Assembly (NCBI GenBank): GCA_963709345.1 | Contig: CAVPVX010000001.1 | Span: 390,418-454,417, forward strand | Source of the DNA: an uncultured Actinomycetes bacterium | GTDB taxonomy: Bacteria; Actinomycetota; Thermoleophilia; UBA2241 | DNA: 64,000 nucleotides | Direction: 5' to 3' | Part shown: positions 43,649 through 64,000 of the stretch, piece after piece | How the letters are laid out: each line of letters starts with the position of its first letter | Numbering within the stretch: the first letter of the stretch is position 1 | Translations under genes and position numbers: made by a program | The notes under the pieces: model-generated | Seen by the model: only the letters and a program-made list of their open reading frames with translations | Database searches by the model: none | Told to the model about the DNA's origin: nothing

Positions 43649-45028
43649 ATGACGAAGACCCTCACCCACACCATCGGTTCGGCAGGCCGCCTGACCATTC
43701 TGGGGCGCGAGCAACTCGACCGGCTTGATGCGGCGGCGCTCGAGGTGCTCGCTGAGGTCGGTGTCTCCATCCCGTCCGAGATGGCGCGCGCGGCTCTGGT
43801 GGCGCAGGGCGCCACCGCCGAAGGCGCGCGCGTCACCCTGCCGGCCGAGCTGGTGCGGCGCCTCGTGAGCCTGGCGCCGCAGAGGATGACCCTCGGCGCC
43901 AGGGCCGGCACGCCGTTCGTCACCGGCGAGCGCTCGCTCATCACCACCGACGGCTGCTGCGTGGAGATCTACGACCTCGAGACGGGCGAGAAGCGCGGGA
44001 CGAACGCGGACGACGTGGCGACGATCAGCCGCGTCGTCGACGCGCTCCCCGAGGTGGACTTCTGCTGGCCGGCGGTGAGCGCCCAGGACAGACCCTCCGA
44101 GATCCGCGGCCTGCACGAGCTGTACCTCGCTCTTGCGAACACGGGCAAGCACGTGCAGACCGTCACTGTGGTCGATCCCGAGCTGGCCGAAGTCGCCGTG
44201 CGGATGGCGCGCGCCGTGAGCGGCTCGGACGAGAAGCTGCGCGCGGAGCCGCCGATCAGCGCGTTGCTCGGCACCGTCACGCCGCTCGGTAACGACGCCG
44301 GGACGCTCGAGGCCGGCTTGGTCTTCGCCGAGGCCGGGATCCCGATCGGATTCGTGACCATGCCCATGGGCGGTTCGACGACTCCGATCACCATGGCCGG
44401 CTCGCTGGTCGTAGGCATCGTGGAGGCGCTCAGCGCCGTGTGCGTGATCCAGGCCGCCTTCCCCGGCGCGCCCGTCTTCATCTGCTTCATCCCCAGCGTC
44501 ATGGACCTGAAGAGCGGTGACTTCACCGGGGGCGCGCCTGAGGACACGATCATGGCCGCGGCCGTCGCCGACGTCGGATGCTACTACGGCCTGCCGACGC
44601 AGTGCGGCGTGAACTCGAGCGGCGCCAAGGAGCCCTCGTGGCAGTCGGCGCTCGACGACTCCTCGACCACCCTCCTGTCGCTGGCCGCCGGCGTCGACCT
44701 GCTGACGGGTGTCGGCATGGTCTCGGGCGGAAGGATATTCAGCTACGAGGAGATGGCGCTCGCCGTTGAGACGCTTGCCCAGGCGCGGGCGCTCGCCGCC
44801 GGTATCGACATCTCGTCCTTCGGCGGGGGATCCGGCGGGCAGGCTGCGCCTGCCGCCGGCCCCACGCTGCTGGTCGACGAGCCGCACCGCCACTGGACAG
44901 CCGCCGGTCGCCAGACGGCGAGAGACCGGGCGCATCAGCGCATCGTCGACGCGGTCGCCTCGCATCGCCCGCCGCCGCTCGCGCCGCCGCTCGACGCCGA
45001 GCTGCGGCGGCTCGCCCAGGTCGACTGA
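43649..45028 (+). CDS. MttB-superfamily corrinoid methyltransferase, non-pyrrolysine
   Basis: ALEVLAEVGV, TPITMAGSLV, MDLKSG..GAPE; SSGAKEPSWQ at the Pyl-equivalent site; G...GGRIFSYEE. Confidence 0.85.
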   Translation: MTKTLTHTIGSAGRLTILGREQLDRLDAAALEVLAEVGVSIPSEMARAALVAQGATAEGARVTLPAELVRRLVSLAPQRMTLGARAGTPFVTGERSLITTDGCCVEIYDLETGEKRGTNADDVATISRVVDALPEVDFCWPAVSAQDRPSEIRGLHELYLALANTGKHVQTVTVVDPELAEVAVRMARAVSGSDEKLRAEPPISALLGTVTPLGNDAGTLEAGLVFAEAGIPIGFVTMPMGGSTTPITMAGSLVVGIVEALSAVCVIQAAFPGAPVFICFIPSVMDLKSGDFTGGAPEDTIMAAAVADVGCYYGLPTQCGVNSSGAKEPSWQSALDDSSTTLLSLAAGVDLLTGVGMVSGGRIFSYEEMALAVETLAQARALAAGIDISSFGGGSGGQAAPAAGPTLLVDEPHRHWTAAGRQTARDRAHQRIVDAVASHRPPPLAPPLDAELRRLAQVD

Positions 45029-45140
45029 GGCGGGACAACGGCCCCCCGGCCCGTCGGACTCCCTCGGAACCGACGCCGGACGGAGCGGCGACACGCTCAC
45101 AATCGGAGTGTTCTCCACTCGTGGCGCGGTCGCCGAAGGG

Positions 45141-45169
45141 TTGTCTTTTCGGGGGCGTGCTGTATAAAT
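45141..45169 (+). promoter_or_regulatory. Housekeeping-type promoter of the ABC operon
   Basis: TTGTCT-N16-TATAAA(T) about 130 nt upstream of the binding-protein gene. Confidence 0.5.
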
Positions 45170-45301
45170 CGAGTTCAGATGTCGCTATGGGGGAACGCGG
45201 CACGGTAAGTCCTGACCAGCGGTGGGGGCCGCATCCGTGACGAATTCCAGCCAGAAGCCGCACGGTACGTCGGGAACAAGTCAGCCGGAAAGGACGAAGG
45301 C

Positions 45302-60793: not shown

Positions 60794-62283
60794 TTGAAAC
60801 GACGTGCCCACGTGGGACTGTACGCGCCAGCGGAGGCTTCAGCTCGATGCCTTCACCGACGACGAGTTCAGGGACCTCCACGTCGCGACTCTGGAGGTCC
60901 TCGAGCAGACTGGCGTCTTCACCATCTACGACCCCGAGGCGCTGGACATCTTCGAGTCCGGCGGCGCGATCGTCGATCGTGCGACCGGGGTCGTGAGGAT
61001 TCCGCCGCGGCTCGTCGAGGCGGCGCTCGACTCGTCGCCGGAGCGCATCCTGGCCGCCGGTCGCAGCCCCAAGGACGACATCATGCTCGATGCCGGGCGC
61101 GTCGGCTTCACGACGTTCGGCGAGGGCATCAGCATCGTCGACCTCGAGACCGGCGAGATGCGTGAGCCGACCAAGCAGGACGTCGCCGACACCGCGCGAG
61201 TCGCCGACTACCTGGACGAACTGGACACGTACGAGATCGCCGTCGGAGCTCACGACATGCCGACCGCGACGGCGACCATCCACAGCTACGAGGCGGCGCT
61301 GCTCAGCACGCAGTAAGCACATCTGCGCCGGCCCGCTCTCCCGCTGGGAGGCCGAGACGATACTCGACATCGCCGCCGCCGTCGTGGGTGACCGGGAGGC
61401 TCTGCGGCGGCGTCCGATGGTGATGATCGGAGTATGTCCGGTGAGTCCGCTGAAGCTCCCCAAGGAGTGCTCGGAGGCGATCGTCTCGGCCGCGCGCGCC
61501 GGCGTCCCCTGTCTGGTGCTCTCGATGGCGATGGCCGGTGGCTCGGCCCCCGTCAATCTCGCCGGTACACTCGTCGTCCACAACGCTGAGGTGCTCGCCG
61601 GAATCACGCTGGCGCAGCTCACGAGCCCAGGCACGCCGATGCTCTACGGCAGCTCGACGACGGCCATGGACCTGCGCCTCGCGGCGGCCTCCGTCGGCTC
61701 GCCGGAGTGTGGCGTCATCAGCGCCGCCGCAGCCGCCATCGCGCGACGGTATCGCCTGCCCAGCTACGTGGCCGGGTTGTAGGGCGACTCCAAGCTCTTC
61801 GACGCTCAGACCGGTCACGAGAAGACGCTGACCGCGCTGCTGCCGGCGTTGGCAGGTGCCAACCTGATCTACGGCGCGGGGATGATCGAGTCGGGTGTCG
61901 CGTTCGATTTCGGCCAGCTCGTCATGGACAACGAGTTCGCCCGGATGATCAAGCACGCGGTCATGGGTGTCCCGGTGGACGACGAGCGGCTCGGCGTGGA
62001 CGACATCGCGCAGGTGGGCCCCTTCGGGGACTTCCTCAGCCTGGACTCCACACTCAAGTTCATGCGCAGCCAGTCCCAGCCGAAGCTGATCGACCGCAGG
62101 GTGCGGGAGGACTGGGCCGCCGCCGGCGGCAAGGACTTGCATCAGCGCGCGCTGGAGGAGGCGCGCCGCATCCTCGCGACGCACGTGCCGGAGCCGCTGC
62201 CCGACGACGTCGTGCGCAAGATCCGCGAGATCGTGGACGCGGCCGACGCCGCTGCGGCAGTAAGAAGTCCACAATGCACCTGA
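60794..62283 (+). CDS. mttB: Second pyrrolysine-type trimethylamine methyltransferase; in-frame TAG at 61780-61782; indels near 60825 and 61310
   Basis: [46 protein letters not shown] in one frame; clear paralogue of 52173-53642; GGAGG followed by TTG start. Confidence 0.88.
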
Positions 62284-63700
62284 AGTTCGGGTGCCTTTCG
62301 GCCGCCGAGAAGGACGCGCTGCACCAGCGCGTCCTGTACGTGCTCGAGCACGTGGGCATCGGCGTGGAGTCCACCGTCGCCCTGGACCTCCTCGCCGACG
62401 CGGGCGCCCACGTCGACAGGGTAGCGCCGCACCGCGACCCTGCCCCCAGAGCTGGTCGAGAGCTGTCTGGAGAAGGCTCCCGGGAGCGTGCGGCTCGCGG
62501 CCCGCGACGCGGCTCACGACCTGCTCGTCGGCGCCGGCTCGCCGCTGGCCTGCTGCACGGACGGCATGGTGATGACGGTCCTGGACGACGTGACCGACGC
62601 GGTGCGTGACGCTACGCGCGACGACCTCGCCTACTTCTACGGCCTCTTCGACGCTCTTGACGACCTCGACTTCATCTGGACCTCGCTGACGTTGGGTGAG
62701 CTCGATGCGCCGACGGTGGGCCTCGAGACCGATCTCATCGCCCTGGAGTCCACCTCCAAACACGTGCAGAGCGTCGTGGCGCACTCGCCGGAGCAGGTGC
62801 CACCCCTTCTGGAGATGTTGGAGGCGATCGCGGGGGCGCCGATGCACGAGCGGCCGATCTACTCCTCGCTGCACTGCCCCGTGTCGCCGCTGCGGTTCGA
62901 GGGCGACAAGCTCGAGGCCTCAATCGAGCTCGCGCGCCACGGGGTACCGATCCTCGTCCATCCCCTGCCGCTGATGGGCACCACGGCTCCTCTGAGCGTC
63001 CTGGTACTACCGTCATCACGCTCGCGGAGATCCTGGCCGCCGTCACCATCTTCCAGCTGGCGGCGCCGGGCTGCCCTCGATGGTGGTCGCCATCGGCGGC
63101 TCCACGCATCTGCGCACCGGCGGGTATCTCAGCGGCACGCCCGAGGTCGCGCTGATCGACATGGCGAGCCTGGCCATGACCCGTCGGTACGGCCTGCCGA
63201 GCATGAGCGCCGGCATGAGCTCGGATGCCAAGGCCGCCAACTTCCAGGCCGGCTCGGAGGGTGCTCTGACGGCGGCGACCTCCGTGCTGTGCGGCGCTTA
63301 TTCTGCCGTCGGGGCCGGGGTCGTCGACGAGGCGGTGTCCACCGCCAAGACCATCCTCGACTGCGACCTCATCGGGTCGGTCAAGCGCCTGCTCGAGCTG
63401 CCCGACACCGTGGACGACGCGTCGACCCTGATCGACGACATCGCCGCGGTCGGCCCGGGCGGTCAGTTCCTCGCGCGGCGCAGCTCTCGCGTGAACTCTC
63501 GCCGCGGTGAGATCTGGCGCGCATCCGTGTTCCAGCGTGAGGCCCCATCCGCGTATGCGGGGCGTTCCCTGGTGAGCGACGCGCTGGCGCGCGCTGAAGC
63601 AGTGCTCGCCGCGCACGTGCCGACCCCCATCCCCGACGATGCCCGCCGCGAGGCGCGCGCCGCGTTCGAGCGGTACGCGCGTGGCGCGGGCGGCCACTGA
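62274..63700 (+). CDS. MttB-superfamily methyltransferase, non-pyrrolysine (several indels)
   Basis: LYVLEHVGI, TSKHVQ, CPVSPL, GTTAP, GTPE, SAGMSSDAK and VGPGGQFL across three frames. Confidence 0.8.
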
Positions 63701-63717
63701 ACAAGGAGCACCGGAAG

Positions 63718-64000
63718 ATGGAGACGCAGTTCCCGACCCGCATGGGTGACGGCTCGCTGACCCGCTTGACGCGCAGCGAGCTGCGCGCGGAGCTCGAAGA
63801 GGGCACCTTGGCGGCGGCGAGCCGGGCCAGGGTGCCGCCGCTGTCCGCGGACGAGCTCGACCACCTGGTCGAGATCTGGGCGTCGCCGGCCAAGTTCTCC
63901 GCCGTCGACATCGGCGACGAGGTCGTGCTCACCTACGACGGCTCGGGGTCAAAGACGGTCGGCACGCGCACCCAGGACCTGCTCATCTACGAGCAGATGT
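63718..64000 (+). CDS. mtbB: Dimethylamine:corrinoid methyltransferase MtbB-like, 5' part only (runs off the window)
   Basis: AAGGAG RBS; METQFPTRMGDGSLTRLTRSELRAELEEGT...VPPLSADELDHL...SAVDIGDEVVLTYD matches the MtbB N-terminal pattern RMGDG...P.LS.DE...V..G.EV..T.D. Confidence 0.8.
   Translation, partial: METQFPTRMGDGSLTRLTRSELRAELEEGTLAAASRARVPPLSADELDHLVEIWASPAKFSAVDIGDEVVLTYDGSGSKTVGTRTQDLLIYEQM

Follow-up and report, generated by a model that had tools for sequence, protein, structure and literature searches.

We analysed a 64,000-nucleotide stretch of contig CAVPVX010000001.1 (GCA_963709345.1, positions 390,418 to 454,417), hereafter the window, from an uncultured Actinomycetes bacterium of the thermoleophilian lineage UBA2241. 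Positions 43649 to 64000 hold six genes of the MttB family of amine methyltransferases (M1–M6, numbered left to right) and form part of a real, conserved cluster of vitamin-B12-dependent amine demethylases in uncultured anaerobic Actinobacteria, which is very probably functional. The four paralogues of the non-pyrrolysine (non-Pyl) type have none of three substrate-site residues of a characterised betaine demethylase. In relatives the array of MttB genes runs into a gene for lysine 2,3-aminomutase (KamA), a link that goes beyond the preliminary description of this DNA and is its most informative feature. We tentatively read the cluster as a corrinoid N-demethylation system that combines a standard trimethylamine/dimethylamine (TMA/DMA) arm with non-Pyl enzymes for cationic amines other than betaines.

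Six MttB paralogues in a conserved cluster

A PF06253 search recovered six MttB-family genes, at least one piece of each scoring above the gathering threshold of 25 bits; two have an in-frame TAG and four are of the non-Pyl type. Ser, Ala, His and Ser occupy the pyrrolysine-equivalent site of M1, M2, M4 and M6, as the preliminary description had read by eye, and the other components that it listed are likewise all present: one corrinoid protein, the start of a dimethylamine methyltransferase gene (MtbB), an amino acid ATP-binding cassette (ABC) importer, a BetI-like regulator, an amine oxidase, a class III aminotransferase and a deiminase. Pairwise identities among the six paralogues are 26–36%, with M3 and M5 at 58% (intact orthologues stood in for M4–M6), indicating old lineages and no recent tandem amplification.

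A homologue scan with M3 returned 236 related stretches, of which we kept 78 loci of about 21 kb (denoted by L numbers), titled as Thermoleophilia, Actinomycetes or Actinomycetota metagenome-assembled genomes (MAGs) and at most 95% identical. An M3 orthologue is found in 36 loci from 34 MAGs. Within these 36, many of the loci being cut by contig ends, orthologues were counted for M1 in 20, M2 in 18, M4 in 28, M5 in 5 and M6 in 8; the corrinoid and aminotransferase genes are each present in 21. Seven MttB clades fall inside 21 kb in 11 loci. The earlier proposal of several corrinoid methyltransferase paralogues with a single corrinoid gene and substrates yet to be described is supported, and the region is conserved in these relatives.

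The TetR–M5–M6–MtbB block changes place as a unit: M4 precedes it in the window and in L005, L015 and L026, whereas its neighbour in L003 and L011 is the corrinoid gene. A horizontally acquired island was rejected, as GC content is flat across the window (0.63–0.73) and dnaA lies about 6 kb from the cluster, with L072 placed likewise. Close homologues of M2 and of KamA carry automatic names only. A plasmid search with M2 gave 143 records, all below 60% identity (about 30% at best) and with no useful context, and a scan for promoters and terminators gave no signal above shuffled sequences. Two MAGs have the M3 region on two contigs each (L001 and L002; L006 and L007), through either strain mixture or assembly duplication.

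Non-Pyl paralogues lack key residues of the betaine site

The substrate site of MtgB comprises Tyr97, Arg312, His348 and Phe356; the R312L variant is inactive, and Arg312 is kept by MtcB, MtpB, MtyB and MthB (PMC13080624; this and the other PMC articles are cited from the accessible part of each source). We aligned the four non-Pyl paralogues to MtgB, using orthologues for the broken genes M4 and M6. At positions 97, 312, 348 and 356, M1 (43649–45028, plus strand, clade K6, PF06253 221 bits, Ser TCG at 44615, frame intact) has Cys, Gln, Thr and Gly, and M2 (48698–50167, plus strand, clade K7, 288 bits, Ala329 at 49682, terminal TAG) has Cys, Asn, Ser and Ser. The M4 orthologue has Thr (or Asp by MAFFT), Phe, His and Gly; M4 itself (58576–59973, plus strand, clade K3, HDVGYLE type, 99 bits) carries His CAC at 59485. 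The M6 orthologue has a non-aromatic residue, Met, Thr and Asp; M6 (62274–63700, plus strand, clade K11) overlaps the end of M5, has about four frameshifts, carries Ser AGC at 63218 and matches PF06253 in pieces of 19 (below the cut-off of 25), 38 and 79 bits. Equivalents of Tyr97, Arg312 and Phe356 are therefore missing from all four genes and His348 is present in M4 only, so that the analogy to enzymes for glycine betaine, carnitine and proline betaine implied by the preliminary description is not supported. Across the 78 loci and the window, none of 170 non-Pyl sequences has Arg in the 312 column. Judged by these residues, M1, M2, M4 and M6 lie outside the characterised MtgB/MtcB/MtpB betaine group, a trait common in the family.

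M1, M2 and M6 belong to a FastTree clade of 48 sequences (support 0.99) in which Asp immediately precedes the Gly110 position in 31 members, Trp stands at a barrel-strand end in 35 and Arg312 occurs in none; outside the clade the same Asp and Trp occur in 15 and 13 of 97 sequences. The clade is widespread, its nearest Atlas clusters being mostly from Planctomycetota, Actinomycetota and Promethearchaeota. Asp106, Trp145 and Asp305 are conserved in the M2 clade, K7. A predicted model of M2, the one paralogue modelled (pLDDT 91.9), adopts the MttB/MtgB TIM-barrel fold (TM 0.93 to MttB, 7XCM, and 0.91 to MtgB, 2QNE/9YCE) and places both Asp and Trp at strand ends. A rim of acidic and aromatic residues where the characterised enzymes have Arg would suit a cationic substrate with no acid group nearby. 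The quick tree also joined K3/K5 with K1/K12; this join carries a long-branch warning and was not relied on. Halomethane methyltransferases were discarded as relatives, CdmB being a UroD-family protein rather than an MttB (PMC13222342), as were links to arsenic and mercury, for which the accessible literature gave no support specific to these clades.

Pyrrolysine-type enzymes M3, M5 and MtbB

M3 (52173–53642, minus strand, PF06253 303 bits, TAG 52661–52659) scores 666 bits against TIGR02369, for which the cut-off is 525. M5 (about 60794–62283, plus strand, TAG 61780), which has at least two frameshifts, matches PF06253 in pieces of 66 and 226 bits and, as a frameshift-broken fragment, TIGR02369 at 486 bits. 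Rfam PYLIS_3 matches start at both TAGs and score 78 and 76 bits. Among 255 near-full MttB domains from the loci and the window, 85 have TAG in the Pyl334 column. TAG also terminates the genes for the importer's binding protein (46175–46177), M2 (50165–50167) and the oxidase (56095–56097); since it ends these genes yet lies within the frames of M3 and M5, TAG probably serves both as a stop and as a sense codon.

Gly110 and Tyr364 are reported to be fully conserved in pyrrolysine TMA methyltransferases (PMC9842639). Both M3 and M5 keep equivalents of Tyr364 and Met249 (M3 by alignment to 7XCM). At the Gly110 position M3 has Asp, within the motif SNFDEG, as do all 36 sequences of its orthologous set, the window included, and the 40 sequences of its sister set have Ser; over the 79 pyrrolysine MttBs of clade K1 the column reads Ser in 40, Asp in 36 and Gly in 3. 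With this Asp and an operon that also contains the aminotransferase gene, M3 may act on a tertiary amine of the methyl-lysine or diamine type rather than on TMA. M5 retains Gly110 (TTFGEG in the window and in 5 of 5 orthologues). With Gly110 and Tyr364 both kept and MtbB downstream, it is the paralogue most likely to be the standard TMA enzyme.

The MtbB start (63718–64000, plus strand, PF09505 58 bits) is 91–95% identical to four full-length, TAG-bearing MtbB proteins (L003, L011, L016 and L026). A second type of locus (L031–L071, L073, L074 and L076) has several MtbB paralogues around a pyrrolysine MttB, often three to five per 21 kb. All 78 full-length MtbB sequences have an in-frame TAG; at 75% identity they split into 10 groups, a hint of secondary-amine substrates besides DMA.

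A lysine aminomutase follows the MttB genes in relatives

Uninterrupted arrays in relatives lead, in this order, through M4-type, K4, K5 and K9/K14/K20 MttB genes to KamA and finally to an activator of the RACo/RamA type (RACo). In all 17 loci that have it (16 MAGs), KamA lies directly 3′ of a K9/K14/K20 gene; on the same strand, RACo is directly 3′ of KamA in all 12 loci where the sequence extends far enough. Of 15 loci in which gaps at KamA were measured, 11 had gaps below about 180 bp, and the upstream-gap values of the other four were negative and unusable. The KamA protein of L008 scores 566 bits against TIGR03820 (cut-off 525), below the cut-offs of the glutamate/arginine mutase and EpmB models, and KamA matches the Clostridium subterminale enzyme (2A5H) at E 8e-162, keeping its radical-SAM cysteines and its QCD and DAxGGGGK motifs. 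RACo occurs in 12 of the 36 loci with an M3 orthologue; the window itself has no RamA-like activator, as the preliminary description had noted.

In L016 and L025, M6-type genes are followed by K4 and K14 up to the locus edges. Further neighbours in relatives, most of them scoring below their NCBIfam cut-offs, fit the same picture: there are genes of the agmatine deiminase family and the CN-hydrolase and APC types, along with others resembling ornithine/putrescine carbamoyltransferase, carboxynorspermidine synthase and PotD. Behind RACo, L018, L072, L075 and L077 have one to three EamA-family transporters, possibly amine permeases. We found no paper that links MttB to methyl-lysine or to lysine aminomutase, in a search made largely without subscription literature.

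The K9/K14/K20 proteins (L009 2800–4068; L020 3501–4703; L077 6675–7901) are without the N-terminal helices and one barrel motif and keep the dimer arm; the K9 group is 46–63% identical to K4 and K7 over the arm and 30–36% over the barrel. In M1 the C-terminal dimer arm is diverged and about 18 residues shorter, likewise in its orthologues (median 65 versus 83 in most clades, n = 17). In the solved MttB complex this arm touches the partner's site and the corrinoid protein (PMC9842639). Our guess is that the arm-shortened M1 could pair with a barrel-degenerate K9-type paralogue as a heterodimer.

Importer and putative backbone-processing genes

Between M1 and M2 lie, all on the plus strand, genes for a polar amino acid ABC binding protein (45302–46177, PF00497), a permease with an N-terminal extension (46295–47533, PF00528) and an ATPase (47496–48545, PF00005). 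In its second lobe the binding protein has Ala where the solved binding proteins 3VV5 and 4ZV1 have Asp; Ala also stands there in 20 of 21 aligned family members (one has a gap). The Asp at this position presumably binds the alpha-amino group; with Ala in its place, the ligand may be N-substituted.

On the minus strand, 50168–51527 encodes a class III aminotransferase of the PRK07046 family (NF005453 516 bits, cut-off 425), whose orthologue has its best solved match in 5YKR (E 6e-133). 5YKR is probably Pseudomonas PA5523, encoded beside a polyamine gene; a search for this Pseudomonas relative turned up no function. An FAD-dependent amine oxidase/dehydrogenase of the DAO family (54607–56097, start approximate, plus strand) matches PF01266 in two pieces; its best NCBIfam model is TIGR03329, below cut-off, and no solved relative was found at E 1e-15. 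The agmatine deiminase-family gene (56088–57135, ends approximate, minus strand) matches PF04371. A TetR/BetI-type regulator (60138–60719, minus strand, PF00440 and PF13977) is divergent from M5.

Proposed route and alternative readings

Enzymes of this family transfer a methyl group to a Co(I) corrinoid, which undergoes ATP-dependent reactivation, and the methyl group passes on to tetrahydrofolate (THF). The corrinoid protein of the window (51550–52176, minus strand, PF02310 and PF02607) lies directly downstream of M3, is MttC-like and has the DxHxxG motif in the form DLHDIG; it falls below the cut-offs of the MtgC, MtbC and TIGR02370 models. In Eubacterium limosum a single carrier, MtqC, serves three MttBs (PMC12155760).

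From the genes, their conservation, residue states and order as observed, we infer substrates, carrier sharing and direction of flux as follows. Each MttB barrel would bind one amine and hand its methyl group to Co(I) of the corrinoid protein, probably a single carrier encoded here; a RamA-like ATPase would re-reduce the cobalt, and a methyltransferase encoded elsewhere would move the methyl group to THF. M5 and MtbB would form the standard pyrrolysine arm, from TMA through DMA to monomethylamine. M1, M2, M4 and M6 would demethylate N-methyl cations that have no acid group nearby, most likely methylated lysine, diamines or guanidines. The methylated substrates would enter through the ABC importer, and lysine 2,3-aminomutase, together with the aminotransferase, oxidase and deiminase, would then use the demethylated backbones. 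That N-methylated lysine, related diamines or guanidines are the substrate class of the non-Pyl enzymes, and perhaps of M3, is a plausible proposal that falls somewhat short of an even chance. The most specific version is rather doubtful: here a relay of MttB enzymes, including a non-TMA M3 (Gly110 to Asp) and possibly an M1/K9 heterodimer, would demethylate N-methylated lysine (or diamines) stepwise and anaerobically and deliver lysine to KamA.

Several observations weigh against this route. KamA and RACo lie outside the window, and neither was seen in the loci with the window's M4–TetR–M5/M6 order (L005, L007, L015 and L026), where the fetched flanks end early; the 17 KamA loci come from related genomes and are not independent events. 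The Asp and Trp of M1, M2 and M6 are placed by sequence alignment, not by pocket geometry. Arg312 occurs in only 5 of the 131 full-length MttB representatives nearest M2 (50% library), so that its loss removes the betaine analogy and gives no pointer to lysine. The binding protein scores slightly higher against the NCBIfam cystine model (142 bits) than against the Lys/Arg/Orn model (137 bits), both under cut-off, and the deiminase, oxidase, CN-hydrolase and carboxynorspermidine synthase-like matches are also below NCBIfam cut-offs. No pyl genes were identified among the window or scanned locus genes, the loci of about 21 kb being short enough for pyl genes to lie outside, and no pyrrolysine tRNA by ARAGORN, which may miss such tRNAs. 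No corrinoid:THF methyltransferase or pterin-binding match was obtained among the 66 predicted window genes (all but one 70-codon piece covered) or, with Pfam, among 129 locus proteins, in keeping for the window with the preliminary description. As regards the acceptor pathway, a near-complete Wood–Ljungdahl pathway has been described in some Thermoleophilia MAGs (PMC9326234), and one UBA2241 MAG is reported without the formate oxidation steps (PMC7438021).

The best-surviving alternative, which we consider somewhat unlikely, is a general amine-scavenging depot for choline or phosphocholine, tetramethylammonium, N-methyl alkaloids, hercynine-type compounds and S-methyl donors, with KamA as a passenger whose unrelated role would lie in lysine fermentation or N-acetyl-beta-lysine osmolyte synthesis. 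The deep divergence of the clades (26–36% identity) suggests several unrelated substrates, the Asp/Trp clade is widespread and the regulator is of the BetI type. A choline/ethanolamine kinase-family gene in L062 (86–1039), about 6.7 kb from a non-Pyl MttB, fits a phosphocholine route, which counts against our proposal too, and recalls MthK/MthB (PMC12155760). However, MthB itself retains Arg312 (PMC13080624), KamA stands between an MttB gene and RACo wherever the region is visible, and beside it we identified neither an acetyltransferase nor lysine 5,6-aminomutase nor any further gene of lysine fermentation.

It is distinctly less probable that the non-Pyl genes demethylate acidic quaternary amines (glycine betaine, carnitine, proline betaine or butyrobetaine) through another anion-binding site. 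Such amines are the substrates of all five characterised non-Pyl members (PMC13080624, PMC12155760), the M2 model matches the MtgB fold (TM 0.91), M4 has His348 together with His at the pyrrolysine site, and the K9 clade of relatives has Arg in the pyrrolysine column. Nevertheless, M1, M2, M4 and M6 have no equivalent of Arg312, Tyr97 or Phe356, MtgB loses its activity through R312L (PMC13080624), and no BCCT or OpuA-type betaine transporter was found among the scanned locus genes.

A biosynthetic direction, in which beta-lysine from KamA would be N-methylated from methyl-corrinoid to give an osmolyte, or be incorporated, instead of what PylB makes, into a residue resembling pyrrolysine, is very improbable: KamA does adjoin the activator at the end of the methyltransferase array, Gly110 is replaced in most K1 pyrrolysine MttBs and no pylB appears among the locus genes, but M5 retains Gly110 and would carry the same residue, the flanking importers fit catabolism, pyl genes may simply lie beyond the 21-kb loci, which makes their absence uninformative, and no precedent came up in the largely open-access literature searched.

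Frameshifts in the right half of the cluster

Frameshifts in the window break M4–M6 and the genes for the aminotransferase, oxidase, regulator and deiminase, a point that the preliminary description did not make. Comparing each gene with up to eight relatives, we found no window-specific frameshift in M1, M2, M3 or the corrinoid gene, one each in the aminotransferase (a single insertion), oxidase, regulator and M5, 4 in M6, 18 in the 0.74 kb of the deiminase and 24 in M4. The binding protein has two mutually compensating deletions that leave its frame open. Such breaks are most likely consensus or sequencing errors in a poorly covered stretch. The indels are chiefly deletions, are densest near 56–59.5 kb and strike unrelated genes as well. 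Divergence between M4 and its L007 counterpart at codon positions 1, 2 and 3 is 0.077, 0.062 and 0.197, compared with 0.075, 0.063 and 0.277 for intact M2; we read the breaks in M4 as errors because 24 genuine indels should have erased this pattern. Long open frames are kept by orthologues of M4 in 25 of 28 loci, of M5 in 5 of 5 (over the barrel) and of M6 in 6 of 8.

The preliminary description had raised the possibility that the paralogues are genuine pseudogenes. As applied to the right half of the cluster in this strain (deiminase, M4, M5 and M6), that reading could draw on the 24 and 18 frameshifting indels of M4 and the deiminase that relatives do not share, on an identical base adjoining only about a third of the deletions and on the deiminase's less clear-cut codon-position divergence of about 0.11, 0.11 and 0.19, with its first two positions raised; we rejected it as highly improbable, because divergence in M4, M5 and M6 is still concentrated at third codon positions, as in intact genes, that of M4 does not exceed that of M1 or M2, and the clustering of deletions and the intact orthologues speak against it. 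The same description had called the deiminase a remnant. The gene is indeed present and, its breaks being window-specific and most likely sequencing errors, is probably no remnant; an L015 orthologue scores 348 bits against PF04371. A broken GAF-domain piece (57345–57944) lies in the error-rich stretch between the deiminase and M4 and, at the thresholds applied, matched no DNA of the 78 loci.

Relation to known systems

M3 and M5 resemble MttB of Methanosarcina barkeri (7XCL, 7XCM, 7XCN; PMC9842639) in TAG at Pyl334, Tyr364 and Met249. M3 abuts the corrinoid gene, and the M2 model superposes on MttB with a TM of 0.93. The archaeal enzyme differs from M3 in the residue at Gly110 (Asp in M3) and from both M3 and M5 at Thr111, where they have Glu; in a bacterial host the methyl acceptor is presumably THF rather than coenzyme M. 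With the Desulfitobacterium hafniense MtgB system (2QNE, 9YCE; PMC13080624), the cluster shares the non-Pyl MttB fold, a corrinoid protein nearby and, in relatives, a RamA-like gene. That system comprises a corrinoid protein, MtgA and a RamA homologue, whereas no MtgA was found among the genes scanned here, and MtgB differs from the four non-Pyl genes at Tyr97, Arg312 and Phe356, with His348 shared by M4 only.

Six paralogues are not unusual for this family: E. limosum has 42 MttB genes (PMC12155760) and Eubacterium maltosivorans 41 (PMC9303578), with a shared carrier, as is probable here, and likewise with most substrates undescribed. The Eubacterium enzymes (MtpB, MtcB, MtyB and MthB, with MtqC, MtqA and RamQ) all belong to the non-Pyl type, and Arg312 is kept by those that have been characterised; in the present cluster, by contrast, pyrrolysine and non-Pyl genes stand intermixed with lysine- and polyamine-related genes. 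Peatland Actinobacteriota MAGs are reported to express pyrrolysine mttB and mtbB, and the genus Bog-752 (order UBA2241) is named as one of the most active (PMC10805028). Two of our loci, L048 and L062, belong to record PLTW01, which that study lists as Bog-752. The accessible part of that study treats non-Pyl mttB as specific for quaternary amines and describes no gene clusters, active-site residues or link to KamA. In relatives, KamA differs from the C. subterminale enzyme by Ile or Val for the Pro of DAPGGGGK and by lying between MttB genes and a corrinoid activator, not among lysine fermentation or osmolyte genes. We found no paper on pyrrolysine in Thermoleophilia in the same largely open-access search, and a text search of the accessible part of PMC11363022 gave nothing on Actinobacteria.

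Because pyrrolysine mttB and mtbB in Actinobacteriota, large MttB families and carrier sharing are already published, neither the lineage nor the number of paralogues nor a shared carrier is new. The value of the cluster lies in the failed betaine test together with a specific substrate hypothesis that can be assayed. No more than six substrates are known for the MttB superfamily (PMC12155760), and metagenomic practice counts every non-Pyl copy as a quaternary-amine enzyme (PMC10805028); here, in a lineage abundant in soils and wetlands, that label fails when the residues are examined. Gene order offers clues, in the form of lysine aminomutase, deiminase and aminotransferase genes, that narrow the question to a small set of candidate substrates. 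If the donors prove to be methyl-lysines or N-methyl polyamines, the cluster would constitute a new anaerobic sink, in competition with methanogens, for methyl groups derived from protein; if a pyrrolysine enzyme acts on a substrate beyond mono-, di- and trimethylamine, the 22nd amino acid would have a wider role.

Other genes in the window

An isochorismatase-family cysteine hydrolase (53961–54563, plus strand, PF00857), missing from the earlier gene list, is possibly an N-carbamoyl amidase. Immediately 5′ of M1 is a tRNA-editing gene of the YbaK/ProX type (43075–43590), found at the same place in many relatives. A second group of genes for basic amino acids spans 8536–19058 and includes dimethylargininase/deiminase-like genes (8536–9609 and 18183–19058, under cut-off) along with arginase-family, enolase-family racemase, saccharopine dehydrogenase-like and ArgE/DapE genes; dimethylamine, on which MtbB acts, would be a product of a dimethylargininase. 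At 21861–25981 a glycine riboswitch and an aminotransferase precede a GcvT domain and then SHMT pieces in several frames, the last two possibly representing a frameshifted GcvT–SHMT fusion. Further left, 3513–7979 encodes a 1295-residue protein with an N-terminal helix-turn-helix and seven GAF stretches, after which comes a GGDEF piece.

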